This document shows positions 12,256 to 33,371 of a DNA stretch of 64,000 nt, in pieces. How positions within the stretch are numbered: position 1 is the stretch's first letter; each line of letters opens with the position of its first letter. The stretch comes from Candidatus Omnitrophota bacterium (GTDB lineage Bacteria > Omnitrophota > Omnitrophia > Omnitrophales > Aquincolibacteriaceae): contig DAOSLF010000001.1 in the NCBI GenBank assembly GCA_035368605.1, positions 22,877 to 86,876 on the forward strand. Direction: 5' to 3'. A model generated the notes under the pieces. That model had not been told where the DNA came from. It ran no database searches and saw nothing but the letters and a program-made list of their open reading frames with translations. A program made the translations under genes and the position numbers.

Positions 12256-12496
12256 GTCCGGGGATTCGGGTCTGCGGATCCGTTTCTCGTGAAAAAACGG
12301 TTTAAGCGGGTCCCGAGATGCGGATTCCGGTTTCCGGTATTCCTCCTTGTCAAACTCATGCCTCTCCCTTACACTACCGCGGCTGTGAACCCCGTCGGAT
12401 TTTTAACCCGCACTGAGGCGAACGTTTCAGGGAAGAATGGAGTCATGAAATATTCTTTTGAGTTGAATCATTCGGGCCAATGGGAGATTTAACCAG

Positions 12497-13607: not shown

Positions 13608-13610
13608 GAA

Positions 13611-13640
13611 CCGGGACTCGTCCCCAGGGACGAATCCCGG
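13611..13640. repeat. GC-rich imperfect palindrome CCGGGACTCGTCCCCAGGGACGAATCCCGG (member of the CCGGG(G)ATTCG repeat family), likely terminator-like hairpin after prfB
   Basis: Inverted repeat read directly, 3-33 nt after the prfB stop. Confidence 0.6.
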
Positions 13641-13661
13641 GTGGGTTAAACGGAGGCGGTC

Positions 13662-14462
13662 ATGAAAAAGTTCGCACAACTATTTGTCTTGCTCGTTGGT
13701 TGTTTGGTCTTGTCAGGTTGCCTGACACAGGTTGAGGACGGCCAGGTCGGCGTGAAGATCGATTTCGGAAAGATCCAGGAGCAGCCGCTCGGCGCGGGCT
13801 GGCACTTCTTCGTGCCGGCGGTGACACAGATCGAGATCTGGAACGTCAAGATCCAGGAACTCAAGGAGCTGGCCATGGTGCCGTCTTCGGAAGGTCTGAT
13901 CTCTCAGCTCGATATCTCCATCCTTTATCAGGTCCCCGCAGGCCAGGCGAGCCTTGTCCGTCGCACGATCGGACGCTACTATGTGCAGATCGTGCTCGAG
14001 CCGTATGTCCGTGAAGCGATCCGGAACGTCGCAAGCGGCTACGCGGTGAAGGCCCTCTATAGCGAGGCGGGCCGGAAGGAGATCGGCAAGAACATGCTCG
14101 ATTTCCTGCAAAGCAAGTTGGACGAGAAAGGCATCATCGTGCAGGATGTGCTTCTGCGGGATGTGAAGCTGCCGCCGTCGTTTTCCCAGTCGATCGAGGC
14201 GAAGCTCCGGGCCGAACAGGAGGCCCTCCAGAAGGAGTTCGAATTGCAGAAGGCGAAGAAAGATGCCGAGATCGAGGTTGCGCGCGCGGAAGGTGTCGCG
14301 AAGGCCAACCAGATCATTGGGGATTCCCTCAAGAACAACGAACCGTACCTCCGGTACCTCTGGATCAACAACCTCAAGGAGACGAAGAACAATGTGATCT
14401 ACGTCCCGACCGAGGCGGGGCTGCCGATCCTCGAGGCATCCAGGAAAACAAACACTCAATAA
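13662..14462 (+). CDS. SPFH/band-7 (prohibitin/HflC-like) domain lipoprotein
   Basis: Signal peptide with lipobox LSGC. Coiled-coil AEQEALQKEFELQKAKKDAEIEVARAEG is typical of the SPFH C-terminus. GGAGG RBS precedes the start. Confidence 0.7.
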   Translation: MKKFAQLFVLLVGCLVLSGCLTQVEDGQVGVKIDFGKIQEQPLGAGWHFFVPAVTQIEIWNVKIQELKELAMVPSSEGLISQLDISILYQVPAGQASLVRRTIGRYYVQIVLEPYVREAIRNVASGYAVKALYSEAGRKEIGKNMLDFLQSKLDEKGIIVQDVLLRDVKLPPSFSQSIEAKLRAEQEALQKEFELQKAKKDAEIEVARAEGVAKANQIIGDSLKNNEPYLRYLWINNLKETKNNVIYVPTEAGLPILEASRKTNTQ

Positions 14463-14470
14463 AAAGGAAT

Positions 14471-14498
14471 GGGTCCGGGGATTCGTTCCCGGGACCCG
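14471..14498. repeat. hairpin repeat GGGTCCGGGGATTCGTTCCCGGGACCCG (same family)
   Basis: Imperfect palindrome immediately after the SPFH gene stop. Confidence 0.6.
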
Positions 14499-14559
14499 TG
14501 AATTGCTTTAAAAAACATATCCGAAGGAACCGGCCGCAAGCCCCGATTTTGGAAAAAAT

Positions 14560-17235
14560 ATGATCAATTTCATCCTGAAAAAAATATTCGGAACGCAGAA
14601 CGCAAGAACGTTGAAAACCCTCTGGCCGGTCGTCGCACAGGTGAACGCTTTCGAACCGGAGATCCAGAAGCTTTCGGACGACGCCCTGCGGGCAAAAACG
14701 GATGAGTTCCGGAAAAGGCTCGCCGCCGGCGCGACGATAGATGAGATTCTGCCCGAGGCGTTCGCCGTGGTCCGGGAGGCCTCCAGGCGGACGACGAAGA
14801 TGCGACATTTCGACGTCCAGATTCTCGGCGGTCTTGTGCTCCATAAGGGAAAGATCGCGGAGATGTCGACCGGGGAAGGGAAAACGCTGGTCGCGACGCT
14901 CCCGCTTTATTTGAACGCGCTGGAAGGGAAGGGCGCGCACCTTGTCACAGTGAACGACTATCTGGCTAAACGTGACCGGAACTGGATGGGACCCATCTAC
15001 GAGTTCTTGGGGCTTACCGTTGGCGTCATCCAGCATGACATGCCGCACGAGGAACGCCAGAAGGCCTATGCCTCGGATATCACCTATGGGACGAACAACG
15101 AGTTCGGGTTCGATTACCTGCGCGATAACATGGTTACGAGCCTCGAGGGACGTGTGCAGCGGCCGCTCCATTTTGCGATCGTCGACGAGGTCGACTCGAT
15201 CCTTATCGACGAGGCCCGGACGCCGCTCATCATTTCCGGCCCCGCCGAAGAATCCACGGACAAGTATTACCGGGCCCAGCGAGCCACCCATGTCCTGAAG
15301 GGTTACCGGATCGTCAAGGAAGAGGTCGACCCCGAATGGAAGGCGAAGCTCGAGGAGATCAAGAAGGACTACGATTACATCGTCGATGAAAAGGCGAAGA
15401 CGGTCCGCCTCACGGAATCAGGTGAGGCCAAATCGGCGAAAGCGATGGGGGTCGAGAATATGCACGACTCCGACACCGTGGCGGAACGTCACCACATCAT
15501 CACGGCCATTCGGGCGAAGGAGTTCTTTGAGAAGGACGTTGATTACATCGTCAAGGACGGCGCGATCATCATCGTGGACGAGTTCACGGGCCGCCTGATG
15601 CCCGGCCGCCGCTTCTCGGACGGTCTTCATCAGGCCCTCGAAGCGAAGGAATCGGTCGAGATCAAGCGAGAGAACCAGACGCTCGCGACGATAACGTTCC
15701 AGAACTATTTTCGCATGTACAAGAAACTTGCGGGCATGACCGGTACCGCCGCGACGGAAGCGGTCGAGTTCGACAAGATCTACAAGCTCGATGTTGTCGT
15801 TATCCCGACGAACCGGCCCTGCATCCGCGCCGACCATCACGATTCCGTCTATCGCACCGAGCGCGAGAAGTTCGACGCGGTAGTGCGCGAAGTGGCCGAG
15901 ACGCACAAAGCGGGGCGTCCCGTGCTCGTTGGCACGATCTCCATTGAAAAATCGGAGCAGCTTAGCAAACTCCTCCAGAAGATCAATCTTCCTCACACGG
16001 TCCTGAACGCCAAATACCACGAGAAAGAGGCTGAAATCGTCGCGCAGGCGGGCCAACCCGGTGCCGTCACGATCGCGACGAACATGGCGGGGCGCGGTAC
16101 CGACATTGTGCTTGGTCCCGGCGTCAGGGAAAAGGGCGGTCTCGCGGTGATCGGCACCGAGCGTCACGAGTCGCGTCGCATCGATAACCAGCTGAGAGGG
16201 CGATGCGGGCGGCAGGGGGACCCGGGGACATCGAAGTTCTTCATCTCGCTTGAGGATGAGCTTATGCGGCTTTTCGGTTCCGACCGTATTGCGAGCCTTA
16301 TGCAACGGCTTGGGATGCAAGAGGGCGATGAAATCCAGCATCCTCTTGTCAGCCGCGCGATGGAGACGGCTCAACGGCGCGTCGAGGCGTACAACTTCGA
16401 GATTCGCAAACACCTGCTCGAATATGACGACGTCATGAACCGCCAACGGGAACTTATTTACGGCGAACGCGATCTTGTTCTCAAAGGGACTTACGAGGAA
16501 CTCAAGAAACACATTCTCGACATGTCCGACAACGTTGTAGAGAACCTTCTCCTGACGTATGTGAATCCGGATATCCGCGACGATGAAAAGGACCCCGAGG
16601 GGCTCGTCGCCGCGATGAGGGAGAAGTACGGCGCGGATCTGCGCCAGGCGGTCGATGAGAATATGTACGGGATCGATTCTCTCCAGGCTGAGCTCGAGGA
16701 GAGGGTCCGTGCCATCTACGACGCGCGGGAGAAGGCGTTCGGGATCGAACGGTTTCATTTCCTGGAAAAGTACATCCTTCTGCAGGTGATCGATACGAAA
16801 TGGAAAGAACATCTTTACGCGCTCGACAATCTCCGTGACGGGATCGGTTTGCGGGCCTATGGCCAGCGGGACCCGCTCGTTGAGTACAAGAAAGAAGCGT
16901 TCGATCTTTTCGACGCGATGACCGATGTGATCAAGGATGAGGCGATCGAGCTTCTGTTCCGCGTCCAGGTGGTCCATGAAGAAAAGATGAAAGCCGCGCC
17001 GGAAACGCCGAAAGCCCGGTACCTTCATCCGGATTCCGGTGGTATGAAAAAGACAGCCGAGAAAGTCCATCAACAGGTCGAGCAGGGCATGGAATCCCGC
17101 TTTGCTCCGCGGCAAGGCGCACCCGACCAGAAACCCGAACCGATCCACCGGGAAGGCCCGAAAGTCGGAAGAAATGACCCCTGTCCCTGCGGAAGCGGCA
17201 AAAAATTCAAAAAGTGCTGCGGAGGCAATGAATAA
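14560..17235 (+). CDS. secA: preprotein translocase ATPase SecA
   Basis: Start [19 protein letters not shown]. Walker [19 protein letters not shown]-like helicase motifs. C-terminal zinc-binding [14 protein letters not shown]. Confidence 0.95.
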
Positions 17236-17236
17236 A

Positions 17237-17317
17237 CCCGGGTCTAGAGACTCGTTCCCGGGGGCTCAAGAAGACAAGGCGCCGGACGAGTCCCGGGAGA
17301 CCGGCTCCGGGTCCCGG
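17237..17317. repeat. cluster of CCCGGG-containing inverted repeats (GAGACTCGTTCCCGGG ... GGACGAGTCCCGGGAGACC ... GGGTCCCGGG) after secA
   Basis: Multiple SmaI-type CCCGGG palindromes and the TCGTYCCCGGG motif lie between the secA stop and the lnt start. Confidence 0.55.
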
Positions 17318-17330
17318 GTTTAAGGACGAC

Positions 17331-18848
17331 ATGAAAAAAGTCAGGTTTTTATTAGCTATTGTAAGCGGCATTCTCCTCGCCCTCTCCTTTCCTCACCCCG
17401 GTTGGGGCTGGATTGCCTGGGTTGCACTGATCCCTCTTTTTTATGCGATCCGGTCCGCTCAGAGCGGGCTGTCGGCCTTTGGCCTCGGGTATCTCGCGGG
17501 GTTCGTTTTCTTTTCCGTCTCGATGCAGTGGATGACGCATGTGACCGCCGTCGGCTGGCTTCTTCTCGCGATCCTGGAGTCCTTTTTTATCGGCGTGTTC
17601 GCTTATCTGGTCTACCTCGGGAAACAGACGTCCTGGCCGGTGTTCTGCAAAGTCCTCTGGACGGCGTCCGCGTGGACGCTTACGGAATATGCCCGGTCTG
17701 AAGTGCCCGTGTTCGGTCTCGGCTGGAATCTGCTCGCTTACTCGCAGGCGTCTTGCCCTGTCATGATCCAGATCGCGAACGCGGGCGGCGCTTACGGTCT
17801 GGGGTTTCTGATCGCGGTTGTGAATGTCAGCCTCGCGAAACTTTGTCTTTTTGAGAAAAAACGGAAACGCGGCGTCACAGCGGGGCTTTTTGCGTCGGCG
17901 CTACTCGTTCTTTTCGGGACCTATGCTTATGGCGAATGGCAGCTCGCGGAGGCGAAGCCCGCCGAAGAATTCCTGAGGGTAACGGTCCTGCAGGGAAATA
18001 TCCCGCAGTCCCTGAAGTGGGCGCCGGTCGCGCGAGAAAAGATCATCGAGGTTTATTCCAAACTCACGGAGCTCGCCTCTCTTTCGCAATCGGATCTGGC
18101 CGTCTGGCCCGAGGCCTCTTTTCCGGGATATTTCAACCGCGATCTCCTGGCGGAGGTTGTCAAACGCCGGATCCGGGAACTTGGCGTGCCGGTGTTGCTC
18201 GGCGGGCTTCACTGGGAAAGCCGCGAGGAGGTCTACAACAGCGCTTATTTTGTGGATCGGAACGGCGAGACCGGTCAGCGGTATGACAAGCTGAACCTTG
18301 TTCCGTTCGGGGAATACATCCCGCTGAAGCGGATTTTTTTCTGGCTGACGCCGATCGCGGACGCTCTCGGGATCAGCGATTTCAGCATGGGGAAGGACGC
18401 GGTTCTTTTCCGTTGGGCGAGGGAGGCCTGGCCGTTCGGCACGCTGATCTGTTTTGAGGATGTGGTGCCGTCACTTGCGCGGGAATTTGCCGCGCGCGGC
18501 GCGACCTTCCTTGCCGTGATCACGAATGACGCGTGGTTCCTCGACACGGGGGCGCCGTTCCAGCATCTCCAGGCCTCGATCTTCCGGGCTGTCGAGAACG
18601 GGATTCCCGTCGTGCGTTCTGCCAATACCGGCGTTTCCGGTTTTATCACCCACCGCGGGGAGGTGAGCAAGACCGTTACCGGTAACAATGGCAAGGAAAC
18701 CTTTGTGACGGGGCTCACGACTCACGATATCCCGCTCATCTCCAGGATAACCTGGTATCGCCGTGGCGGTTGGATGTTCCCGCACGCGACACTTATTGTC
18801 TTCATGGTCTTGAGTGTTGTTATGTGGCGGAGAAGATCCCATGGATAA
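17331..18848 (+). CDS. lnt: apolipoprotein N-acyltransferase
   Basis: N-terminal multi-TM region (LALSFPHPGWGWIAWVALIPLF) followed by a CN-hydrolase domain (VWPEASFPGYF, ICFEDVVP). Confidence 0.85.
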   Translation: MKKVRFLLAIVSGILLALSFPHPGWGWIAWVALIPLFYAIRSAQSGLSAFGLGYLAGFVFFSVSMQWMTHVTAVGWLLLAILESFFIGVFAYLVYLGKQTSWPVFCKVLWTASAWTLTEYARSEVPVFGLGWNLLAYSQASCPVMIQIANAGGAYGLGFLIAVVNVSLAKLCLFEKKRKRGVTAGLFASALLVLFGTYAYGEWQLAEAKPAEEFLRVTVLQGNIPQSLKWAPVAREKIIEVYSKLTELASLSQSDLAVWPEASFPGYFNRDLLAEVVKRRIRELGVPVLLGGLHWESREEVYNSAYFVDRNGETGQRYDKLNLVPFGEYIPLKRIFFWLTPIADALGISDFSMGKDAVLFRWAREAWPFGTLICFEDVVPSLAREFAARGATFLAVITNDAWFLDTGAPFQHLQASIFRAVENGIPVVRSANTGVSGFITHRGEVSKTVTGNNGKETFVTGLTTHDIPLISRITWYRRGGWMFPHATLIVFMVLSVVMWRRRSHG

Positions 18849-21483: not shown

Positions 21484-22242
21484 TCAGATCAGGGACAGAC
21501 CGCCATCCGCGATGACGATCTGACCGACGATCCAGGAAGATTCGGGTGAGCAGAGGAATGTGATGACGCGCGCGAGGTCTTCGGGGGTTGCGACGCGGCC
21601 GGCCGGTGTCCTTTTGACGACTTCTTGCTTGAAGATCTCGAAAAAGGGGAATGCCTTCAGCGCATCCGTGTCCACAAGCCCGCCGGAGACTCCGTTCACC
21701 CGGATTCCCTTGGGCATCAGCTCCACCGCGAGATAACGGATCAGGCTTTCGAGCGCCGCCTTGGAGATACCGATGGCCCCGTAATTCGGGATGTAGCGGT
21801 GAGAACCCAGACTTGAGATCGCGAGGATCGCTCCTTCTTTTTTTGCCTCCATGCCCGGCAGGACCTTCTGGACCATGGCGAGGAAGGCCTTTGTGTTGAT
21901 GTTCATCGAAAGGTCGTATTGATTCATCTTGAGTTTGTGGACCGGCTTGAAGGCCCCGAGCGCGGCGTTGTGGATGAGGATGTCGATCGATCCAAAAGTT
22001 TTGGTGACATTCTCGAACAGCGCGGGGAGTGCGTCGAGGTCGCCGACATTGCACTGGAAGATTTCGGCTTTGACGCCTTTCAAGCGGATTTCTTCGGCCG
22101 TTTTTTGCGCGGCGCCTTCGTTCTGAAGATAATTGACCGCAATGTTCGCACCTTTTTCCGCGAGCGCGAGGGCCGTGGCTTTTCCGATCCCGCGGGATGC
22201 GCCAGTAATGAGGGCTGTCTTGCCATGAAGCGGTGTCGTCAT
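21484..22242 (-). CDS. SDR family reductase, FabL/FabG-like (enoyl- or ketoacyl-ACP reductase)
   Basis: MTTPLHGKTALITGASRGIGKA. Catalytic YGAIGISKAALE (YxxxK). Divergent from the radical SAM gene. Confidence 0.8.
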   Translation of the reverse strand: MTTPLHGKTALITGASRGIGKATALALAEKGANIAVNYLQNEGAAQKTAEEIRLKGVKAEIFQCNVGDLDALPALFENVTKTFGSIDILIHNAALGAFKPVHKLKMNQYDLSMNINTKAFLAMVQKVLPGMEAKKEGAILAISSLGSHRYIPNYGAIGISKAALESLIRYLAVELMPKGIRVNGVSGGLVDTDALKAFPFFEIFKQEVVKRTPAGRVATPEDLARVITFLCSPESSWIVGQIVIADGGLSLI

Positions 22243-22329
22243 AGGCCGAGAGAATAGCAAAGAACACCGGAAAGCTCAATTTAATTCCCCGTGGCCGGTA
22301 AAACAAATTCGGGTAAAAAAGGGAAAGTC

Positions 22330-22338
22330 TGTTATACT
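22330..22338 (+). promoter_or_regulatory. extended -10 element TGtTATACT placed 6 nt upstream of ATG (predicts a leaderless transcript for the radical SAM gene)
   Basis: TCTGTTATACTTCCGCA-ATG. The same TATACTTCCG motif recurs at 59474 and 63192. Confidence 0.5.
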
Positions 22339-22344
22339 TCCGCA

Positions 22345-23946
22345 ATGAAAGTTCTCCTGATTAATCCAAAATTCGCCCCGACGATCTGGTCGTTCGACGG
22401 TCTTCGCCCGTTCACGGGCACGAGTTTTTCGACGACCCCTCTCGGGCTCGCGACCGTCGCCGCCTTGACGCCCGCTTCCTGGGAAGTCGAAATTCTCGAC
22501 GAGAATGTCGAGCCGATCGATTTTGAAAAACCGGCCGATCTCGTTGCCGTCAGCGCCTTCAATGTCCAATACCGTCGCGCGATCGAGATCGCGCGCGAAT
22601 TCAGATCCCGCGGCCGGAAAGTGGCGTTTGGCGGACCGTATTGCAGCCTTTTTCCGGAGGCGTTCGAGGGCAAGGCCGACCACCGCATCGTGGGGGAGGC
22701 CGAGGACATTTGGCCGCTTTTTCTTCGTGATTTCGAAGAAGGCAAGGCGCTTGAGCTTTATGTGGCTCCGAAAGCGAGCGTGGATATCCGGAAGAGCCCT
22801 GTCCCGCGTTTTGATCTTATTAAGGGCGATCGATACAATATGTTTTCCCTTCAGACGACTCGAGGTTGTCCCTATAACTGTGAATTTTGCGATATCATCA
22901 TCATGGACGGCCGGAAACCCCGTACGAAGACCGTTCAGCAGGTGCTTGCCGAAGTGGACCATTGCGTTCAGCAGGGGGCCCATTACATCGTGTTCGGTGA
23001 CGCGAATTTTATCGGCAATATCGGCTTTGCCAGGGAACTGCTCACGGCCCTCGCGGATTATTCGAAAAAGAACGGCTACCCGATCGAGTTCTCATGCGAA
23101 TTGACGATCAATGTCGCCCATCACCCCGATCTTCTGGAGCTTCTTCAGGAGGCGAACTTCTACGCCGTTTTCGTGGGGATCGAATCGCCGAGGAAGCAAA
23201 GCCTCCTCGAAGCCGGAAAGTATCAGAACACGCGCGAGGACATCATCGAAGACATCAAGCGTATCCAGTCGTATCACATTTCGGTTGTTGCCGGCATGAT
23301 CGTCGGCTTTGATTCCGACGACAAGGGAATCTTCAAGGAGACCTACGATTTTCTCCAGGAACTCGGCATTGCGTTTACGACCTGCGGGACGCTGATGGCC
23401 CTGCCTCACACGCCGCTCCTTAAACGCCTTAAGGCCGAAGGGCGGCTTCTCGATCTCGAGTGGACGGGCATGAACGGTCACGGCGCTTCGGACTGCAATT
23501 TCATCCCGAAGCTCATGACGCTCGACGAACTGCGTAAAGGCTATAATTGGCTTAGCCGCTGCCTCTATCGTTACGATAGTTACGCTGACCGCCTTGTCGC
23601 CACGCTGAACCGTTTCAGGAACCGTAATAAAGAACATAAAAGAGCGAGTCTCGACACGAAATTCCTGAGCGTTCTCGTCAAGGTCTTCGCCTATTACACG
23701 CTGACCTTCGATCTCAAAAGGATGTCGTTTTTTTACGGAACCATGTGGCGTGTCGCGGTGGGCGGGCCCTTTTCTGTCGGGAAATGGCTGGAATTCTTCC
23801 GCTGGATCGCGACGCATCGCGCTTTTCGCCAATATGTGATGGAAACCCAGGGAGATCCGGAAGAAATGGATCCCAACTCGCCTCCGTTCGATGTCGAGTG
23901 TGCCCCGGTCACGGACGACAGTCCCCGGGAAGAGGTGTTGGTTTAA
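22345..23946 (+). CDS. B12-binding-domain radical SAM enzyme (class B radical SAM)
   Basis: N-terminal cobalamin-binding-like domain (MKVLLINPKF...DLVAVSA). Radical SAM cluster motif CPYNCEFC. About 530 aa with a C-terminal extension. Confidence 0.8.
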   Translation: MKVLLINPKFAPTIWSFDGLRPFTGTSFSTTPLGLATVAALTPASWEVEILDENVEPIDFEKPADLVAVSAFNVQYRRAIEIAREFRSRGRKVAFGGPYCSLFPEAFEGKADHRIVGEAEDIWPLFLRDFEEGKALELYVAPKASVDIRKSPVPRFDLIKGDRYNMFSLQTTRGCPYNCEFCDIIIMDGRKPRTKTVQQVLAEVDHCVQQGAHYIVFGDANFIGNIGFARELLTALADYSKKNGYPIEFSCELTINVAHHPDLLELLQEANFYAVFVGIESPRKQSLLEAGKYQNTREDIIEDIKRIQSYHISVVAGMIVGFDSDDKGIFKETYDFLQELGIAFTTCGTLMALPHTPLLKRLKAEGRLLDLEWTGMNGHGASDCNFIPKLMTLDELRKGYNWLSRCLYRYDSYADRLVATLNRFRNRNKEHKRASLDTKFLSVLVKVFAYYTLTFDLKRMSFFYGTMWRVAVGGPFSVGKWLEFFRWIATHRAFRQYVMETQGDPEEMDPNSPPFDVECAPVTDDSPREEVLV

Positions 23947-24029
23947 AAGATGCGGGATTGTCTCGGGATTGTCGAGGACCCGGATCCGCGGGCGAACCGG
24001 CCGAATGCTCCTCTCTTATAAAAAGATGC

Positions 24030-24059
24030 TTGGGAGCTAAAAAGTCCCTGTGTTATAAT
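24030..24059 (+). promoter_or_regulatory. strong candidate promoter: -35 TTGGGA, 18-nt spacer with TG, -10 TATAAT (TGtTATAATTCCG)
   Basis: Read directly in the rSAM-methyltransferase intergenic region. Confidence 0.55.
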
Positions 24060-24095
24060 TCCGAACCCTTGAACAGGGCAGGGACCATTTCTATT

Positions 24096-24731
24096 GTGGA
24101 ATCGCTCTCAAATACACTTCGGACATACCAGCGAAAACTGTTGGATACGTTAGTCAGGTGTCATTTTCGTCCGACGCTCGAAGCGAGGGCGGAATCATTC
24201 GTCAGGCTCTTTGAAACGTTTCTCCCGAAAGGGAGCCGGATTCTGGACCTCGGCGGCGGCTGGGGGTTCTATAGCGAACCGCTTGCCCGGCGCGGGCACG
24301 ATTCGCTCGTTCTTGATGTCGTAAAGCCGGGATATCAAAAGGCACCGGTTGTCATTTACGACGGGAGCAAGATCCCGTTCGGGGACAAAAGCTTTGATGT
24401 AACCCTCCTTGTGACCATGTTACATCATGTGCCGGACCCGGAGGCGCTGATGCGGGAGGTGACGCGCGTGACGCGCTCGCGGGTGGTCGTGGTCGAGGAT
24501 CTTTATCATCATGGAGCGGGACGTTTCTGGACCATCCTTCGGGACCGGTTGCTCAATATGGAGTTCGTGGAACATCCGCATCAGTTCCGGACCCACGGGG
24601 ATTGGCTTCATTTTTTTTGTAGTAAGGGGTTCCGGCTTGAGAAGTTCGCGCGGGTCTATACTTGGCTCGCGGGATTCCGTATTCTGAACGGTGTTTATGT
24701 TTGGGAGTGTGAACCATCGCTCCGCCATTGA
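24096..24731 (+). CDS. class I SAM-dependent methyltransferase
   Basis: Motif I ILDLGGGWGF and motif post-I VLDVV. The start is uncertain; the in-frame GTG at 24096 is the first start downstream of the promoter. Confidence 0.65.
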   Translation: MESLSNTLRTYQRKLLDTLVRCHFRPTLEARAESFVRLFETFLPKGSRILDLGGGWGFYSEPLARRGHDSLVLDVVKPGYQKAPVVIYDGSKIPFGDKSFDVTLLVTMLHHVPDPEALMREVTRVTRSRVVVVEDLYHHGAGRFWTILRDRLLNMEFVEHPHQFRTHGDWLHFFCSKGFRLEKFARVYTWLAGFRILNGVYVWECEPSLRH

Positions 24732-24766: not shown

Positions 24767-25177
24767 ATGTCCACTGTTTCGATCGAAAAAGTGCTCTGGA
24801 TCAGGGAGGGAGAAGGGATCGCCGCTTGCGGCCGCATCCCGAGTGACTCGGAGTTTTTTCGCGATCATTTCCCCGAGTTCCCGGTCCTGCCGGGCGTGCT
24901 GGCGCTTGAGATGCTCAAACAGACAGCCGAGAAGTACTTGGCGTCGCTTGGGAACGGCGCGGGGGGCCGTTATTTCCTGAAGCATATCCGCGCGACGCGT
25001 TTCACGAAATATCTGCGTCCCGGGGACGAATGGGAAAGCCGGCTCACGCTGACGCAGAGTTCGGACGAAGAAACGGCTTGGGACGCCAGGCTTTATTATC
25101 ACGGTGAGGTCGCGGTATCCGCCAGACTGACGCTCGCCAGGGTCAAGAATCCTCAATCATCGGCGACATCGTTATAA
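24767..25177 (+). CDS. FabZ/FabA-like hot-dog 3-hydroxyacyl-ACP dehydratase (catalytically competent)
   Basis: FFRDHFPEFPVLPGVLALEMLKQ contains the catalytic His (HFP) and Glu of FabZ. Confidence 0.8.
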   Translation: MSTVSIEKVLWIREGEGIAACGRIPSDSEFFRDHFPEFPVLPGVLALEMLKQTAEKYLASLGNGAGGRYFLKHIRATRFTKYLRPGDEWESRLTLTQSSDEETAWDARLYYHGEVAVSARLTLARVKNPQSSATSL

Positions 25178-25196: not shown

Positions 25197-25607
25197 ATGA
25201 ATAACGAGATTTTCAAGAAAGTGCAGGAAACATTAGCCGGCGCGCTTGGTGTTGACGCCTCTGACGTCACGCCCGACGCCTCCCTGAAGAGAGACCTTGG
25301 CGCCGAATCGATCGATTTTATCGACATCATCTTCCGCCTGGAAAAAAGTTTCGACCTCAAGATTCCCGCGAACGACCTTTTCCCGAGCCATATCTTCACG
25401 AACGAACGTTTCGTGAAAGAGGGAATGGTCACTCCGGAAGGGATTCATGAACTCCGCACGAAACTTCCGTACCTTGACCTCGGGGCTTTCGACAAGGACC
25501 CGCAGGTTGTGAAGCTGGCCGATTATTTCACCGTCAAGATGATCCTCCGTTATCTGGAAGAGCGGCTGGGAAAATCCTCGGGTTGTTCCGGCACCTGCAA
25601 ATCGTGA
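25197..25607 (+). CDS. acyl carrier protein with roughly 55-aa C-terminal extension
   Basis: AAGGAG RBS. DLGAESIDFIDIIFRLEKSF is the ACP phosphopantetheine-attachment helix II region (Ser in AES). Unusual C-terminal tail ending SSGCSGTCKS. Confidence 0.8.
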   Translation: MNNEIFKKVQETLAGALGVDASDVTPDASLKRDLGAESIDFIDIIFRLEKSFDLKIPANDLFPSHIFTNERFVKEGMVTPEGIHELRTKLPYLDLGAFDKDPQVVKLADYFTVKMILRYLEERLGKSSGCSGTCKS

Positions 25608-25978
25608 CGGTCAAAACGCGCCGTCTTCATGGGGTCGGGGTCGATCTCGTATCCCGTTCGCGCATGAAAATGTTTCTGTCCCGCCATCGCGATATGATCA
25701 CGCGCAGGTTCCTGAATGACAGTGAGCGCCGGCGCCGCACCAACATCGGTCTCACGGAACTTGCGGAACTTTTCACCGCCAAGGAAGCTTTCTTCAAGGC
25801 CTGTAATGAGCCCTGGATGGGGTTAGGAGGTTTTCGGGGAATGCGGATCACGGAACGTCGCGGCGACGGATTCACCATGGAATGGAAGGTAGCTGGCACC
25901 CGGCGATGTTATCGCGGTGAGGGGGTTTTTTTCCGTGACGGTGATCTGGTCGGTGCCCACACGATGATCTGGAGTTGA
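25604..25978 (+). CDS. acpS: holo-ACP synthase (4'-phosphopantetheinyl transferase, AcpS type)
   Basis: GVGVDLV near the N-terminus and FTAKEAFFKA match AcpS motifs (GxGxDxV, AxKEAxxKA). GTG start overlaps the ACP stop (GTGA). Confidence 0.7.
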   Translation: MTVKTRRLHGVGVDLVSRSRMKMFLSRHRDMITRRFLNDSERRRRTNIGLTELAELFTAKEAFFKACNEPWMGLGGFRGMRITERRGDGFTMEWKVAGTRRCYRGEGVFFRDGDLVGAHTMIWS

Positions 25979-25980
25979 GT

Positions 25981-26415
25981 ATGCGTTGGCTTCTTCTTGA
26001 CAAAGTTCTCTCGATCCACCGTGGCAAACGAGCCGTGACCGAATCCCGTGTTCCCTGCGCGCCCTACTCAAGCGAAGTCCTTTTTGTCGAAATGATGGCC
26101 CAGACCGGAGGTCTTCTGGTCGGAGCGGAAAGCGATTACCGGAACGACGTGATCTTCGCGAAGATCGAGTCTGCTTCGTTCGCCGGGGTTCCGGCCCCAG
26201 GTACTCCGATCACGGTTGAGGCGTTCGCGGACGGGCTCGCTCCCGAGGGTGGGTGGATCGAAGGTGTGATAACAATGGCCGGCGTGGTCATCGCGAAGGC
26301 AAAACTGCTTCTTATGTCTGTCGGGCGGCTCGTCCCGGGGCATTCTCAACCCATCACCTTCCATGATAATTTCATGGAGCATTTCAAGGTCCGGGAGAAG
26401 GTGTCGGTATCATGA
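25981..26415 (+). CDS. hot-dog fold dehydratase-like protein lacking the catalytic His (probable non-catalytic DH partner)
   Basis: Hot-dog length and FVEMMAQTGGLL central helix resemble FabZ, but there is no HxP/HFP motif. Confidence 0.6.
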   Translation: MRWLLLDKVLSIHRGKRAVTESRVPCAPYSSEVLFVEMMAQTGGLLVGAESDYRNDVIFAKIESASFAGVPAPGTPITVEAFADGLAPEGGWIEGVITMAGVVIAKAKLLLMSVGRLVPGHSQPITFHDNFMEHFKVREKVSVS

Positions 26416-27701
26416 CCAGGCACCGGGTGGTCGTCACGGGGTTTGGTGTTATCAGCGCCTGCGGGAACGGATGGGAACCCTATTGGGACAGCGCTCTCCA
26501 GGGACGCTCGGCGGTTCGTGAAGTCGAACGTCTCAAACTGAACGGATTTTCTTTCAAATATGCCGGAACGATTCGGGATTTTGACCCCAAACAATACGTG
26601 GAGAACCGAAAATCCCTCAAGGTCATGTCCCGCGAGATCCAGCTCGCCGTGGGGGCCGCGAAGCTTGCCCTCCAGGATGCCGGTCTTTTCGGGACCGCTT
26701 ATGACCAGTCCCGCTTCGGTGTGACGCTCGGGACCGGTATCATCAATAACGATCTTGACGAGATCGGTGTGGGTTTCAAGAACGCGATCGATGGCTCGGG
26801 ACGTTTTTCGATGGCGAAGTTCGGCCAGGAAGGTGTCCGCTCTCTTTTTCCGCTCTGGTTCCTGAAATACCTTCCGAATATGCCTGCCTGTCACGTTTCG
26901 ATCGCTTACCATCTCCGGGGACCCAGCAACACGATCACGACATCCTCGGCGGCGGGGGCCCAGGCGATCGGGGAGGCGTATCGGGTGATCGAGCGCGGCG
27001 ACGCGGATATCATGCTGGCCGGCGGGACCGATTCAAAATTGAATGCGATGGGGATCTCCCGTTTCCATCTGCTCGGTCTTCTCTCAAAACGGGCCGGATT
27101 GCCGGAGCATGTCTACACGCCGTTCGATGAGCGTCACGACGGGATCGTGCTCGGGGAAGGAGCCGGCATTCTTGTTCTGGAATCGCTGGAGAACGCGAAA
27201 CGGCGCGGGGCTCCCATCTATGCCGAGATCACGGGTTATGGTTCCTCTTCGGATTTCAATTTCGATCCGCGTGACGAGGATGATTTCACCGGCAAGCGGG
27301 TCGCGATGCGGCGAGCGCTCGAAGACGCGGGGATCGAACATCACGACGTCGATGTGATCGTCGCAAACGGGAGCGGCGTTCCCCAGGGGGATATCCAGGA
27401 AGCCCTTGCCATCCACTCGTTCTGTATGGGGTCGTTCGACAAACAGAGCGTGACCGCGCTCAAATCCGTGACGGGAGATCTCGTCTACGGCTCGGGTGGT
27501 GTCGAGGCTGTGATCGCCGCGTTGATCGCCAACAAGCGGGTCGTACCGCCCGTGACCAATCTTAAAAAACCTTATCCGGAATGTCCGCTGCCGCTTGTCC
27601 GGGACAAAGCCAAGTCCGCCGACGTCACGAACGTCATGTTCAACAACTTCGGTTTCGGCGGACAGAACGCGTCACTGGTGTTCAAACATGTCAAAGCGTA
27701 G
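26412..27701 (+). CDS. ketosynthase-like protein lacking Cys/His/His catalytic triad (chain-length-factor-like KS-beta)
   Basis: Thiolase-fold KAS architecture. Active-site positions read ITTSSAAGAQAIGEA (Cys to Ser), DVIVANGSGV (His to Asn) and KSVTGDLVYGSGGVE (His to Asp). ATGA coupling to the upstream gene. Confidence 0.85.
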   Translation: MTRHRVVVTGFGVISACGNGWEPYWDSALQGRSAVREVERLKLNGFSFKYAGTIRDFDPKQYVENRKSLKVMSREIQLAVGAAKLALQDAGLFGTAYDQSRFGVTLGTGIINNDLDEIGVGFKNAIDGSGRFSMAKFGQEGVRSLFPLWFLKYLPNMPACHVSIAYHLRGPSNTITTSSAAGAQAIGEAYRVIERGDADIMLAGGTDSKLNAMGISRFHLLGLLSKRAGLPEHVYTPFDERHDGIVLGEGAGILVLESLENAKRRGAPIYAEITGYGSSSDFNFDPRDEDDFTGKRVAMRRALEDAGIEHHDVDVIVANGSGVPQGDIQEALAIHSFCMGSFDKQSVTALKSVTGDLVYGSGGVEAVIAALIANKRVVPPVTNLKKPYPECPLPLVRDKAKSADVTNVMFNNFGFGGQNASLVFKHVKA

Positions 27702-28983
27702 GATCGTCGTTACAGGAGTGGGGGCGGTGACGCCTCTCGGGAACAATGTCAGGGATACCTGGCTCCGTGTCACACAGGGTAAATCGGGGATCGGTCCTAT
27801 TACGCTTTTTGACGCCTCGACGTTCAACACGCGGATCGCGGGCGAAGTGAAAAATTTCAATTTTGAACGCTGGCTCGAACGGAACCCGCCACTCGCGTCT
27901 GCCACGCGCAGTACGTTCTTCGCGCTTCAGGCCGCCGCGGAAGCCTATAAAGACGCGATGTTGAAGCCGTTCAGTGTTGATTCGCGGCGCTTCGGCCTTT
28001 ATTTCGGTGCCGGGGACAGCGGAATCGATTTCGAGCCGTTTATCAAGACCCTCATGGCCTCCTTCGGCCCGGGCGCCGAGTTGGTCGATAAGGGGAAATA
28101 CCTCCACCATGCCCCGGAACACATGAGCGCCTTGCGCGAGCTCGAAAGCCAGCCGTTCATGACGGTAACGCATCTGACGCGCCTTTTCGACATCCGGGGT
28201 CCCGTGTCGAACTGTCTGACAGCCTGCGCGGCTTCCTCGCAGGCGATCGGCGAAGCTTACGAATGGATCAAGCGCGGTGATGCGGATGTTATGATGTCGG
28301 GCGGTTCTCATTCCATGGTCTATCCGCTGGGTATCGCGGGTTTCAGTCTCCTGACCGCGCTGTCGACGCGTAATTCGGAGCCCGAGAAAGCGTCGCGGCC
28401 GTTCGACAAGAAACGTGACGGTTTTGTGATCTCGGAAGGCGCTGGCGTGCTGATTATCGAGGAACTCCAGCACGCGAAGAAACGCAAGGCGCATATTTAT
28501 GGTGAGGTTGTCGGCTACGGTTCGACAGCCGACTCGTACCGGCTTACGGATATGGATCCGGAGGCTCGCGGGGCCTCGGAGGCGATGCGGATCGCGATGA
28601 CGAAAGCCGGCATCGGACCCGCTGACGTTGATTACATCAACGCGCACGGGACCTCGACCTCGGTCAACGACTCTCTTGAAACAACCGTAATCAAGAAGGT
28701 CATGGGGGAGTATGCGAAGAAGATCCCTGTGAGCTCGACCAAATCGATGCTTGGGCATATGATCGCGGCGGCGGGTGGTGTGGAAGCGATCTTCTGCCTG
28801 CTCGCAATGCGTGATTCGATCATCCCTCCGACGATCAATTATGAAGAGCCCGACCCGGAACTCGATCTGGACTATGTTCCCAACGTTGCCCGCCGCACCG
28901 ACGTGAATGTCGCGCTTTCCAACTCATTTGGCTTCGGCGGTCAGAATATCTGCTTGGCATTGAGGAGATACGATGGCGCATGA
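27688..28983 (+). CDS. beta-ketoacyl-ACP synthase (FabF-like KS-alpha, catalytic)
   Basis: Start MSKRRIVVTGVGAV. CLTACAASSQAIGEA (Cys), YINAHGTSTSVND (His) and KSMLGHMIAAAGGVE (His). Overlaps the KS-beta 3' end by 14 nt. Confidence 0.9.
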   Translation: MSKRRIVVTGVGAVTPLGNNVRDTWLRVTQGKSGIGPITLFDASTFNTRIAGEVKNFNFERWLERNPPLASATRSTFFALQAAAEAYKDAMLKPFSVDSRRFGLYFGAGDSGIDFEPFIKTLMASFGPGAELVDKGKYLHHAPEHMSALRELESQPFMTVTHLTRLFDIRGPVSNCLTACAASSQAIGEAYEWIKRGDADVMMSGGSHSMVYPLGIAGFSLLTALSTRNSEPEKASRPFDKKRDGFVISEGAGVLIIEELQHAKKRKAHIYGEVVGYGSTADSYRLTDMDPEARGASEAMRIAMTKAGIGPADVDYINAHGTSTSVNDSLETTVIKKVMGEYAKKIPVSSTKSMLGHMIAAAGGVEAIFCLLAMRDSIIPPTINYEEPDPELDLDYVPNVARRTDVNVALSNSFGFGGQNICLALRRYDGA

Positions 28984-30064
28984 TCTTGTTTTTATGACCG
29001 GAGCGACCGGTGTGCTCGGTCAGGAGCTTGTCAAAAAACTGCTGCTCACGACGGAGTCCGATATCGCGATTCTTTCACGCGCGAAGAATCGCGTGCCCCA
29101 TGCCGAGCGTGTCCGGAAGATCCTGAAGGCGGCGGGGATGGACGCCCATTTCGGTTCGCGGGTCCGCGTGGTGGAAGGGGATGTCACGAAGCGTAAATTC
29201 GGATTGAAGAAAGAGGATCTCGATTTTCTCGAAAGGGAATGCCGCGTTTTTTATCATATTGCCGCCCTGACCGCGTTGAATGGAACGGATAAGGAATGCC
29301 AGCAGATTAATGTGGGCGGGACCGAACACGCGCTTGAGCTTGCGTGGGATCTCCGGAAAAAGGGGAATCTCGAGCGCTTTATCTATTTCAGCACCGCGTT
29401 CGTGGCCGGCAGTGTCTGGAATTACCGGTCTACGGAGGATTCGCTTCCCGAGAAACCCGCATTTGCAAACTACTACGAGTCCAGCAAGCATGAGGCAGAA
29501 GGCAAGGTCCGGAAGGCGATGGGACACGGCCTGCCGGTGACCATCATCCGGCCGAGCATCGTGGTCGGCGACTCCGTGACGGGCGAGGTTTCCGATTTTA
29601 ACGTGATCTACCCTTTCATCAAACTGTTCGCGCACGGCATCCTGACGAAGCTTCCGACCCACCCTGAGAATACGTTCAATATCGTGCCGATCGATTTCGT
29701 CATCAACGCGACGACGGCCATCGTCAGGAATCCCCGATCGATCAACAAGTGTTTCCATCTGGTGTCGCCGGAGCCGCCTTCCATCGGTTCCCTGGTGGCT
29801 CTCCGCGAATCTTTCCCGAAGGTCGCCAAGATCGAGATGATCGATCCGTCGAGCTTTAAAAAGGACCAGCTGGACCCGCAGGGGCAGATGGTCTTTTCGA
29901 TGCTGGAGCCCTATCTCGGTTATTTGAACGGCAAGTTGACCTTCGACACCTCGAACACCGAAGAAATCCTGCGTGATACGGACGTCCGGATGCCTGAGAC
30001 GGGTCCCGCTTTCCTGAAAACGCTGATCACCTATGCCGCCAAGGCGGGATATTTGGCGATCTGA
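28973..30064 (+). CDS. stand-alone thioester reductase (NAD(P)-dependent, extended SDR; fatty acyl-ACP/CoA reductase-like terminal R domain)
   Basis: FMTGATGVLGQELVKKLL (TGxxGxxG) and YYESSKHEAE (YxxxK) with the overall TR-domain layout. Overlaps the KS stop. Confidence 0.75.
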   Translation: MAHDLVFMTGATGVLGQELVKKLLLTTESDIAILSRAKNRVPHAERVRKILKAAGMDAHFGSRVRVVEGDVTKRKFGLKKEDLDFLERECRVFYHIAALTALNGTDKECQQINVGGTEHALELAWDLRKKGNLERFIYFSTAFVAGSVWNYRSTEDSLPEKPAFANYYESSKHEAEGKVRKAMGHGLPVTIIRPSIVVGDSVTGEVSDFNVIYPFIKLFAHGILTKLPTHPENTFNIVPIDFVINATTAIVRNPRSINKCFHLVSPEPPSIGSLVALRESFPKVAKIEMIDPSSFKKDQLDPQGQMVFSMLEPYLGYLNGKLTFDTSNTEEILRDTDVRMPETGPAFLKTLITYAAKAGYLAI

Positions 30065-30577: not shown

Positions 30578-31753
30578 CTATCGCCAGTGTGTCGGGTGTT
30601 TCAGCGCGGCCATTTTCAGGGCATCCGCGAGGATGAGCGTGAAAACGGCGGCGGCAAGCGGATGAAACAATGCTGATACCGGATTCGCCTTGACTATCGT
30701 ATGGGTCTTAAACGCCGTGATCCAGATGATGAACGCAAGTCCTGTCGCCAGAATCCCGGCCAGTGAATTTCCGAAACAGAAAGGCAGGATGGCGAACGGT
30801 AACACCGAAAAAAGAAAAGTGCTCAGGACACAGCGTAGAAGGTCCGCCGGATTTTGTTCAAAGGCGTGAAGGTAGATGCGCCGCCACCCCCGCCATAGCG
30901 TCTCGAACGAGTCATACATCCGGGTACCATAGAGATTCATTCCGAAAGCGCAAATCCCCTTTGCCCCGGTTTCCTTGGTCTTTCTCATCAGCGCGAAGTC
31001 TTCGAGAAAAGCCTCCTTGACCGCGTGATGACAGCCGAGTTTCCGGTAATGGCTGTGCCGGAGAAGGAGGTACTGGCCGTTTCCGAAGTAGACCTTTGAT
31101 TCGGGATCGTTGATCTTCCGGACAGGGAACCATAGCCCCATGTAGCCCATCGCGCAGGGCTGGATGAGGTTTTCCCAGAAGCCGTGAGCCAGACAGCGGG
31201 GAAGCAGGGTCAGGAGGTCAAGGGAGTTTGTTTCCGAAAAAGCGATCGCGGCGTCGACGCTTCCCGGTTCGTGTCTTGTGTCGGCGTCCGTGAAAAGCAG
31301 CCAGTCGCCTTTGGCGTAGTCTTTGCCGAGATGAAGCGCATAGTTCTTTCCCGTCCAGCCTTCAGGAGTCTCGGGAGTATTGAGATATCCCAAAAAGGGT
31401 CCGTCGCTACTGTCCTTTTTTGTACCGAAAAAGGTGCCTGACCCCTTGATTTCCTCAGCGCCAAGGTCTTTCAGGATCGCTTCGGTTCTGTCTGTGGAGC
31501 CGTTATTGATGACGATGATCTCATCGCTCTCTCGGAGCTGGCTCAAAAAGGGCCGGACGCATGCCGCGATGTTTTTTTCCTCGTTCCGGGCCGGGATCAG
31601 GACCGTCACAGAACCTTTGCGAATGTTTCCGGAAGGAATTCTGAGCGCGGGGGCTTGGGCCAGTTCGGAGAGGGACCGGATGCTACGGTAAATCCATACA
31701 CCAAGCGCAGTCAGGAGATAGGTCAGGAGGATGGGCTCCATAGAGTCAGGCAT
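30578..31753 (-). CDS. membrane-anchored GT2 glycosyltransferase
   Basis: N-terminal TM, VLIPARNEE, IIVINNGSTDRT and FTDADT (DxD), plus C-terminal hydrophobic helices. Start assumed at MPDSMEPILLTY. Confidence 0.7.
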   Translation of the reverse strand: MPDSMEPILLTYLLTALGVWIYRSIRSLSELAQAPALRIPSGNIRKGSVTVLIPARNEEKNIAACVRPFLSQLRESDEIIVINNGSTDRTEAILKDLGAEEIKGSGTFFGTKKDSSDGPFLGYLNTPETPEGWTGKNYALHLGKDYAKGDWLLFTDADTRHEPGSVDAAIAFSETNSLDLLTLLPRCLAHGFWENLIQPCAMGYMGLWFPVRKINDPESKVYFGNGQYLLLRHSHYRKLGCHHAVKEAFLEDFALMRKTKETGAKGICAFGMNLYGTRMYDSFETLWRGWRRIYLHAFEQNPADLLRCVLSTFLFSVLPFAILPFCFGNSLAGILATGLAFIIWITAFKTHTIVKANPVSALFHPLAAAVFTLILADALKMAALKHPTHWR

Positions 31754-31821
31754 CTTAGCAAATGGAGATGGCGGGTCAAGGAAAACTATCAACGGCTAGC
31801 ATTTCTAATCGTTGGGATGGA

Positions 31822-31949: not shown

Positions 31950-33371
31950 ATGAGTGTTTCAGATTACGGAGCCCGGTTTCTTCCCAAAGAGTCCCTTGCC
32001 GGGATCGTTTCCGATTTCCAGCCCGGGCGAAAGGTCCGCGTGGCGGGGAGACTCATGTCCCGCCGTGATATGGGCAAGAGCACGTTCGCAGACATCAAGG
32101 ATGAAGGCGGACGCATTCAGACCTATGCCAAAAAAGACGTGCTCGGCGACGAATCTTACGCCGCGTTCAAGTCGCTGAGTTTGGGTGACATCATCGGGCT
32201 TGAGGGCGAGCTCTTTCTCTCGAGAACGGGCGAGAAGACGATCAAGATCGAAAAGTATGAGCGGCTTTCCAGGATCGTCCGCACACTCCCGGAGAAATGG
32301 CACGGCCTGAAGGATATCGAGACGCGTTACCGCCGGCGGTATGTGGACTTGATCGTCAATGATGAGGTCCGCGAAACTTTCAGGAAGCGGAGTCGCATCA
32401 TCAGCGAGATACGTAAATTCCTCGACGCTAAAGGATTCATGGAGGTCGAGACCCCCATGATGCAGCCTCTCGCGGGAGGTGCCCGCGCCAAACCGTTCGT
32501 GACGCATCACCATGCCCTCGCGACCGATCTTTACCTGCGTGTTGCTCCCGAGCTGTATCTGAAGCGACTTCTGGTGGGCGGTTTCGAAAAGGTGTATGAG
32601 ATCAACCGGAATTTCCGCAACGAGGGAATCTCCGTTCGCCACAACCCCGAATTCACGATGATGGAGCTTTACCAGGCGTACGCGGATTACACGGACATGA
32701 TGAGCATCACCGAAGAACTGGTTCGTCATCTGGTGATGATGCTTTATGGCAAGGACGAAATCCCGTACGGGGATCGCACCCTGAATTTCAAGGCCCCGTG
32801 GAAGCGGATTTCCTTTTACGGCGCTCTCGAAGAGACGACGGGGATGGATTTTCGCAAAGTGAACGTGCGGGAAGCCGCGAAAAAACTTCACGTCAAATTC
32901 GACGAGGATATGGAGGATATCGATGTCCTGAATGAGATCTTTGGTGAGAAGGTCGAGAAAAACCTTTGGGACCCGACGTTCGTCGTCGATTATCCGACGG
33001 TCATGACGCCCCTCGCGAAGGCGAAGGCGGAAGACCCTGAGCTTGTGTACCGGTTCGAACTTTTTATCGCCAAAATGGAAGTGGCGAATGCCTTTTCGGA
33101 GCTGAACGATCCCGCGGTCCAGCGCGGGCGGCTTGAAAAACAGCAGGAGTTGATCGGCGAGCACAAGGAGATCGATGATGATTTCCTGATGGCGCTTGAA
33201 TACGCGATGCCTCCGGCGGGGGGGCTCGGCATCGGTATCGACCGACTCGTGATGCTGCTCACCAACCGGATTTCGATTCGGGATGTGATCCTGTTCCCGC
33301 AACTTAAGCCGAAGAAGAAGGCTGAATTGGAAAACGAAATGGAAACGACGGAAGAAGGTTCCGCTCAATGA
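31950..33371 (+). CDS. lysS: lysyl-tRNA synthetase (class II)
   Basis: OB-fold N-domain (KVRVAGRLMSRRDMGKSTFADIKD). Class II motifs (FRNEG, GGLGIGIDRLVMLLT). Confidence 0.9.
   Translation: MSVSDYGARFLPKESLAGIVSDFQPGRKVRVAGRLMSRRDMGKSTFADIKDEGGRIQTYAKKDVLGDESYAAFKSLSLGDIIGLEGELFLSRTGEKTIKIEKYERLSRIVRTLPEKWHGLKDIETRYRRRYVDLIVNDEVRETFRKRSRIISEIRKFLDAKGFMEVETPMMQPLAGGARAKPFVTHHHALATDLYLRVAPELYLKRLLVGGFEKVYEINRNFRNEGISVRHNPEFTMMELYQAYADYTDMMSITEELVRHLVMMLYGKDEIPYGDRTLNFKAPWKRISFYGALEETTGMDFRKVNVREAAKKLHVKFDEDMEDIDVLNEIFGEKVEKNLWDPTFVVDYPTVMTPLAKAKAEDPELVYRFELFIAKMEVANAFSELNDPAVQRGRLEKQQELIGEHKEIDDDFLMALEYAMPPAGGLGIGIDRLVMLLTNRISIRDVILFPQLKPKKKAELENEMETTEEGSAQ

Follow-up and report, generated by a model that had tools for sequence, protein, structure and literature searches.

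The window analysed here, a 64,000-nucleotide stretch of DNA from a Candidatus Omnitrophota bacterium (GenBank assembly GCA_035368605.1, contig DAOSLF010000001.1, positions 22,877 to 86,876 of the forward strand), contains two neighbouring plus-strand genes which are predicted to encode a B12-binding-type radical S-adenosylmethionine (SAM) enzyme (22345-23946) and a class I SAM methyltransferase (24096-24731), followed by a run of lipid-synthesis genes. A preliminary description of the locus, made from the sequence alone, had placed both genes at the head of this lipid cluster and had suggested that together they perform C-methylation or other radical tailoring of an acyl chain.

The two SAM enzymes

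The radical SAM gene was found to run from an ATG at position 22345 to a stop at 23946 and to encode a protein of 533 amino acids, the start being supported by the agreement of its N-terminus (MKVLLINPKF) with the N-termini of the orthologues. Three Pfam domains were identified in the protein, all of which exceeded their gathering cutoffs: B12-binding (44 bits, cutoff 32.1; approximately 22345-22764), Radical_SAM (74 bits) and DUF4070 (50 bits; approximately 23410-23841). The CxxxCxxC motif lies at 22867-22890 and reads CPYNCEFC (residues 175-182), with C175, C179 and C182 invariant across an alignment of 48 orthologues. An AlphaFold2 model built on these 48 orthologues had a mean predicted local distance difference test (pLDDT) score of 90.2 and started with a Rossmann-like beta/alpha domain at the N-terminus, continued as a partial TIM barrel and closed with a helical domain at the C-terminus. 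By its motif and predicted fold the protein is of the class B type, which carries a B12-binding domain, and it may bind cobalamin. The preliminary description had likewise named a CPYNCEFC radical SAM enzyme with an N-terminal cobalamin-binding-like domain, and this was borne out by the Pfam match, the model and the Foldseek comparison given below, all of which point to a B12-binding fold in the N-terminal domain. The DUF4070 region at the C-terminus is net basic and enriched in aromatic residues (21% compared to 12% overall), and a composition check revealed no transmembrane segment in it; a region that is aromatic-rich and basic is compatible with, although not proof of, peripheral membrane or lipid binding. 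The protein is 100% identical to a database entry assigned to Omnitrophota, and every named close relative was from the same phylum (Omnitrophota/Omnitrophica).

When the protein was scored against NCBIfam models the best match was to TIGR04072 (80 bits, cutoff 360), a model of 443 positions for a 'lipid biosynthesis B12-binding/radical SAM protein' which aligned with residues 78-367 only and stopped short of DUF4070. This was followed by PhpK (72 bits, cutoff 600), MgmA (59 bits, cutoff 360) and AprD4 (56 bits, cutoff 500) and, among the lower matches, by HpnJ (48 bits, cutoff 578), HpnR (TIGR04367; 34 bits, cutoff 650) and BchE (27 bits, cutoff 481), while TIGR03960 gave no match at E <= 0.01. 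The HpnR, BchE and TIGR03960-type models had been proposed in the preliminary description as a means of classifying the protein, and none of them reached its cutoff. Nor did the protein fall into a well-defined unrelated subfamily, as models for porphyrin and tRNA modifiers were far under their cutoffs and those for tRNA and rRNA methylthiotransferases scored 30 bits or less.

Comparison of the model with the PDB using Foldseek returned AprD4 (the top match), TsrM, CysS, MgmA and TokK as the five closest structures, in all of which a B12-binding-type domain is fused to a radical SAM core; a PDB sequence search with the protein returned the same set, with AprD4 near the top. Three of the five (CysS, MgmA and TokK) are cobalamin-dependent radical SAM C-methylases, and the structures of CysS and TokK, whose substrates are pantetheinyl or carrier-bound, were solved with pantetheinyl substrates. 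TsrM is also a cobalamin-dependent methylase, to which a cited review assigns a mechanism distinct from that of the remaining B12 radical SAM methylases. Among solved structures the folds of CysS, TokK/ThnK, TsrM and MgmA come nearest (Foldseek E 1e-13 to 1e-17, TM-score approximately 0.55-0.6), the matches to TsrM, CysS and TokK being full-length, although these enzymes have just 16-19% identity to the radical SAM protein and are unlike it in C-terminal domain and substrate. AprD4 shares its fold with the model but is unlike in its role, being a dehydratase of aminoglycoside synthesis. The tetraether synthase Tes (GDGT-MAS), for which the literature reports a structure in the PDB, was absent from the PDB sequence matches and from the top 50 Foldseek matches.

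The architecture B12-binding, Radical_SAM and DUF4070 has been documented for HpnP and for uncharacterised 'HpnP-like' clades (Hoshino et al. 2023, PMC10697835), and the radical SAM protein has this architecture in common with HpnP. HpnP and HpnR are lipid-acting, cobalamin-dependent methylases of unactivated carbon (hopanoid C-2 and C-3, respectively); their setting is triterpenoid, whereas the radical SAM gene has a fatty-acyl/acyl carrier protein (ACP) or phospholipid context, and no hopanoid genes were found near it. The group with all three domains comprises 1,722 clusters at 50% identity (E <= 1e-30), and the wider family at 40-55% identity includes members from Acidobacteriota, Planctomycetota, Binatia, Myxococcota, Spirochaetes and other lineages. 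As no curated cutoff was reached, the architecture is HpnP-like and the family is very large, the protein is taken to represent a subfamily, as yet uncharacterised, within a known class.

The methyltransferase gene lies within an open reading frame (ORF; 23745-24731) which extends back into the 3' end of the radical SAM gene. Its true start was assigned to the GTG at 24096, giving a protein of 211 amino acids, because a database protein (P0271) is identical in sequence and length and the lengths of the homologues agree (mostly approximately 205-220 amino acids). SAM motif I (ILDLGGGWGF) is encoded at 24240-24269, and LDLGGGWG is invariant in the methyltransferase alignment. The protein matched Pfam Methyltransf_11 (52 bits) and its model (pLDDT 91) is a class I Rossmann methyltransferase; the conventional SAM methyltransferase of the preliminary description is thus confirmed by both profile and model. 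Its structural neighbours include PmtA (8ys9) and BioC (8x8i). A structure-based assignment of the substrate was rejected, since these are just generic class I neighbours at a TM-score of approximately 0.6. Small class I methyltransferases of the BioC, PmtA and UbiG types share the Rossmann fold with the protein, but the family scores are far too low: 17.5 bits for PmtA (cutoff 390), 41 bits for the DVU_1556 family (cutoff 155) and 19 bits for BioC (TIGR02072; cutoff 185), the last of which gives no membership among the BioC malonyl-ACP O-methyltransferases. A match to the Rfam family CRISPR-DR57 inside the gene (E 0.29) was taken as noise.

A total of 195 database clusters make up the methyltransferase family, and as every named match was from Omnitrophota the family appears, from its sequences, to be restricted to this phylum. 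In two of the database clusters, P0377 and P0378 (361-363 amino acids), the methyltransferase is fused to a hot-dog dehydratase, and the P0378 fusion aligns with both the methyltransferase and the dehydratase of the window. The enzyme probably acts on an ACP-bound intermediate.

Conservation of the lipid cluster

Seven contexts of the lipid cluster were sampled: that of the window and L085, which derive from the same organism, and those of loci L165, L166, L167, L170, L171 and L172-174. Their shared gene order is a short-chain dehydrogenase/reductase (SDR; minus strand), the methyltransferase, a hot-dog dehydratase, ACP, AcpS, a second hot-dog protein, a ketosynthase (KAS) paralogue without the catalytic triad, an active KAS, a thioester reductase and a GT2/GT21-type glycosyltransferase (minus strand), and some loci also carry a fatty-acid desaturase or an MMPL exporter. 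The methyltransferase gene was the first cluster gene in all seven contexts. Because it stands first everywhere, occurs fused to the dehydratase and is preceded by a promoter-like site even in L167, which has no radical SAM gene at that position, the methyltransferase is regarded as integral to the lipid pathway.

The radical SAM gene was observed directly upstream of the methyltransferase gene, and thus between it and the SDR gene, in three of the seven contexts (window/L085; L165, 82% identity; L172-174, 70% identity). The preliminary placement at the head of the lipid cluster therefore holds throughout for the methyltransferase but in only these three contexts for the radical SAM gene, which is a facultative and not an obligate neighbour of the cluster. 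The cluster of L172 is the most divergent of those sampled (KAS1 48%, thioester reductase 47%), and in it the radical SAM and methyltransferase genes are separated by 13 bp, compared to 150 bp in the window. A neighbour-joining tree placed the cluster-linked radical SAM copies in two separate, distant clades. A functional link between the radical SAM gene and the cluster is on balance favoured, since their adjacency occurs in two distant clades and once with a gap of 13 bp. Adjacency in one genome had overstated the link, and comparison both weakened it, by showing it to be facultative, and strengthened it, by showing that it recurs in distant clades. The possibility that the arrangement is unique to the lineage of the window was rejected, as the same order is found in the lineage at 70% identity. 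A different arrangement was seen in L170 (16180-20654), the cluster proteins of which are among the closest to those of the window (KAS2 89%, thioester reductase 82%); this locus lacks both the SDR gene and the radical SAM gene of the DUF4070 type, and three unrelated, HpnJ/BchE-like B12-radical SAM genes and a GT2 gene directly follow the thioester reductase gene.

Upstream of the methyltransferase gene a sigma-70-like promoter match (TTGGGA-N18-(TG)TATAAT; 24030-24059, plus strand) agrees with the consensus at 10 of 12 positions and has the TG extension. In a chance test, however, three such sites occurred in 3.9 kb compared to 1.7 +/- 1.4 in shuffled sequences, so that a single site is within chance. 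The same element was present upstream of the orthologous methyltransferase in two of three loci, L165 and L167, while L166 had no match to the pattern. The strong promoter of its own which had been ascribed to the methyltransferase gene is thus borne out as a sequence pattern. No intrinsic terminator was found between the two genes (the intergenic fold had a z-score of 0.29 relative to shuffled sequence), and read-through from the radical SAM gene into the methyltransferase gene is consequently possible. In addition, an extended -10-like element, TGTTATACT, is situated at 22330-22338 and ends 6 nt before the ATG of the radical SAM gene; the position of TGTTATACT would suggest a leaderless or near-leaderless transcript. 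The similar GTCTGCTATACT is found upstream of the radical SAM orthologue of L165, but approximately 170 nt from the start.

The remaining cluster genes of the window lie on the plus strand unless stated otherwise. The methyltransferase gene is followed by genes for a FabZ/FabA-like hot-dog dehydratase (24767-25177), orthologues of which carry the Pfam ApeI-like domain, and for an unusually long ACP (25197-25607; 136 amino acids). The PP-binding match covers residues 8-62 of this ACP and leaves approximately 70 residues beyond it, the orthologues being of similar length (130-137 amino acids). The 3' end of the ACP gene overlaps, at 25583, the start of the gene for an AcpS-type phosphopantetheinyl transferase (25583-25978), which was identified by Pfam. 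The second hot-dog protein (25975-26415) is distantly FabZ-like, with no Pfam match and 31 bits against NCBIfam FabZ, and its gene is kept in all cluster contexts. Two ketosynthase genes follow. In the alignment the product of the first (26412-27701), a chain-length-factor (CLF)-like paralogue, has Ser, Asn and Asp in place of the Cys-His-His triad, whereas that of the second (27691-28983) is of the FabF type (NCBIfam fabF, 487 bits) with the triad intact. The combination of a triad-less and an intact ketosynthase (KS) therefore points to a KS/CLF pair like that of type II polyketide synthases (PKS) rather than to housekeeping fatty acid synthase (FAS). The last plus-strand gene encodes a thioester reductase (NAD_binding_4; 28973-30064; Pfam 180 bits, TIGR01746 164 bits). 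On the minus strand, a GT2/GT21-type glycosyltransferase gene (30578-31792) is kept at the cluster end, and the divergent SDR gene (21484-22260) encodes a FabL/FabG-like reductase (adh_short_C2 234 bits; NCBIfam FabL 306 bits, cutoff 328), an orthologue of which adjoins the cluster in L165, L166, L167, L171, L172 and L173.

The cluster of the window is flanked by envelope and lipoprotein genes, with SecA and Lnt upstream (14560-18848) and lysyl-tRNA synthetase (LysRS), LolC/D-like MacB/FtsX and an ATP-binding cassette (ABC) ATPase downstream (31950-35366), and this SecA-Lnt to LysRS-LolC/D-like block is often syntenic around the cluster across Omnitrophota. A tRNA gene was also identified at 2216-2290 (Rfam, 68 bits).

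Orthologue contexts and the proposed pathway

The commonest other context of radical SAM orthologues was found on six contigs from one clade (L003, L084, L086, L087, L088 and L169), in which a paralogous radical SAM gene (69x amino acids), the orthologue and the genes for phosphatidylserine decarboxylase (Psd), phosphatidylserine synthase (PssA) and LysE form a run on the same strand; in L086 and L169 the paralogue has 27-29% identity, and two B12-type radical SAM genes thus stand beside genes of PS/PE synthesis. Upstream of the Psd/PssA run, L086 (2050-13625) and L169 (21-13627) carry BtuF/C/D-like genes, a TonB-dependent receptor gene and CobA, and two cobalamin riboswitches (2050-2240 and 4961-5076) are present in L086. 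The BtuFCD, CobA and riboswitch context connects the orthologue group with corrinoids, and Psd/PssA connect it with the synthesis of membrane phospholipids, so that its link to lipids and B12 is supported by gene context. A third context was seen in L083 (81% identity; 12194-15877), where genes for YceI, a type III PKS, a UbiE-type methyltransferase and an FAD-dependent oxidoreductase lie three genes downstream of the orthologue; this group of type III PKS, methyltransferase and flavoprotein resembles phenolic-lipid gene sets and may be of that type.

The explanation which we favour, held tentatively and with somewhat less than even confidence, is that the two genes encode tailoring enzymes of an Omnitrophota-specific type II FAS/PKS-like lipid pathway, in which the radical SAM enzyme methylates the acyl chain by means of cobalamin. 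The pathway would comprise its own ACP and AcpS, an active KS with a triad-less CLF-like partner, two hot-dog dehydratases and the SDR. Through the thioester reductase the chain would leave its carrier in the form of an aldehyde or alcohol; the glycosyltransferase would act next, and in some genomes an MMPL exporter would take part. The class I methyltransferase, encoded by the obligate first gene, would methylate an ACP-bound intermediate. In the radical SAM enzyme the [4Fe-4S] cluster would cleave SAM to yield a 5'-deoxyadenosyl radical, this radical would take a hydrogen from an acyl-chain carbon that is not activated, and methyl-cobalamin would then deliver a methyl group to that carbon. 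The chain may be carrier-bound, as for CysS and TokK, or may already be part of a phospholipid, which would fit the linkage to Psd/Pss. Acyl-chain C-methylation by this enzyme is plausible; we infer the substrate, the methylation chemistry and the binding of cobalamin alike from analogy with characterised relatives and from the gene context of the orthologues.

A number of observations weigh against this explanation. The radical SAM gene was absent from the corresponding position in four of the seven cluster contexts (L166, L167 together with 13 similar places, L170 and L171), and orthologues at 72-87% identity sit outside the cluster; the neighbours of some of these are unrelated (RpoD beside the 87%-identical orthologue of L168, a major facilitator superfamily gene in L001) or uninformative (L002). 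In the wider family outside Omnitrophota, clustering of ORFs from 82 loci revealed no recurrent neighbour, and when 149 immediate neighbours were compared with Pfam the commonest family accounted for just four of them. No cobalamin genes or riboswitch were found within the window. Assignment of the protein to a curated subfamily was rejected, as all 23 NCBIfam matches were far under cutoff. In addition, the top structural match, AprD4, is a diol dehydratase in the structure of which no cobalamin is reportedly bound, while GrsA/B and HpnJ are B12-type radical SAM enzymes of lipids whose chemistry is non-methylating.

A role apart from the cluster is possible, if somewhat unlikely, for the radical SAM enzyme, which would then act on the acyl tails of bulk membrane phospholipids and in some genomes share no more than an 'envelope lipid' neighbourhood with the cluster. 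The run of Psd, PssA and the paralogous radical SAM gene is indeed the most frequent context, and the cluster itself lies among envelope genes (SecA, Lnt, LolC/D-like); adjacency to the methyltransferase gene nevertheless recurs in two distant clades, in one of them with a 13-bp gap, and the Psd/Pss linkage would also fit a cluster product that enters phospholipids. An enzyme that acts on lipids without methylating them, for instance by joining tails through C-C bonds, closing rings or dehydrating, and whose B12-like domain stabilises a radical or lacks the cofactor, is considered unlikely: most characterised relatives methylate (PhpK, MgmA, KedN5, HpnR, TsrM, CysS and TokK) and Tes is missing from both PDB searches, even though the top PDB match is the reportedly cobalamin-free dehydratase AprD4, GrsA/B and HpnJ provide non-methylating precedents and the cluster already has a separate class I methyltransferase.

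Incidental adjacency was also considered, the substrate being in that case not a lipid but, for instance, a protein, an RNA or a cofactor. Elongation factor P (EF-P) would be an example of such a substrate, as its gene lies 2.4 kb upstream in the window and is divergently adjacent, on the upstream side, to the orthologue in L083; furthermore, the wider family is without lipid context and the neighbours in L168, L001 and L002 are unrelated. EF-P is absent, however, from nine of 11 orthologue contexts, lipid-related contexts of three different kinds recur and methylthiotransferase models gave no more than 30 bits, which makes this alternative very improbable indeed. Modification of EF-P as the main function was rejected, its gene being near the radical SAM gene in the window and L083 alone.

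Beyond the favoured explanation of two tailoring enzymes, a more specific proposal was formulated which is quite improbable: that the DUF4070 radical SAM enzyme, the methyltransferase and the KS/CLF-reductase genes constitute an anaerobic, Omnitrophota-specific pathway to a methyl-branched or radical-modified long-chain alcohol or ether lipid which enters phospholipids. A pathway of this kind would account for the finding of the radical SAM gene now in the cluster and now in the Psd/Pss run. If it were true, unusual branched lipids of anoxic sediments would have in Omnitrophota a source that has so far gone unrecognised, and a first function would be available for one large 'HpnP-like' radical SAM clade.

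Comparison with known lipid clusters

Omnitrophota are abundant uncultured anaerobes and are grouped with the Planctomycetes-Verrucomicrobia-Chlamydiae (PVC) bacteria. No report characterising their lipids was found, and in the papers considered a capacity for lipid synthesis is deduced solely from gene homologues in metagenome-assembled genomes (MAGs). A cluster that recurs in divergent Omnitrophota, with an ACP, a KS/CLF pair, reductive release, a methyltransferase and a B12-radical SAM partner, is thus a testable candidate for the synthesis of an unusual envelope lipid, and a function for the Omnitrophota clade of the radical SAM enzyme would provide a first foothold in the DUF4070 group outside the hopanoid methylases.

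Aryl-polyene (APE) clusters contain a pair of KS and inactive KS, a dedicated ACP, a methyltransferase and a glycosyl- or acyltransferase. An ApeI-like hot-dog dehydratase and, in some loci, an MMPL exporter are shared between them and the Omnitrophota cluster, which is unlike APE clusters in its terminal thioester reductase and its own AcpS, and no aryl-starter genes were seen among its genes. To our knowledge a B12-radical SAM gene is not part of APE clusters.

Ladderane-type clusters offer a second comparison; in published work antiSMASH has returned 'ladderane' calls for MAGs of Omnitrophota. TIGR04072, the best NCBIfam match of the radical SAM protein, is the B12-radical SAM family of such clusters, but the protein does not qualify as a member by its score. 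The ladderane-type FAS clusters of anammox bacteria and Desulfotalea include Kuste2803, a B12-radical SAM enzyme, and Kuste3347, a SAM methyltransferase, together with a special ACP, FabZ and two FabF paralogues which have been proposed to cooperate (Rattray et al. 2009, PMC2649909; review PMC13459092). No phytoene-desaturase-like gene was found for the Omnitrophota cluster. In both kinds of cluster the genes for a B12-radical SAM enzyme and a SAM methyltransferase stand beside those for an ACP of the pathway's own, a FabZ and a pair of FabF paralogues, while the Omnitrophota cluster is set apart by its thioester reductase and by the lack of the catalytic triad in one of its ketosynthases.

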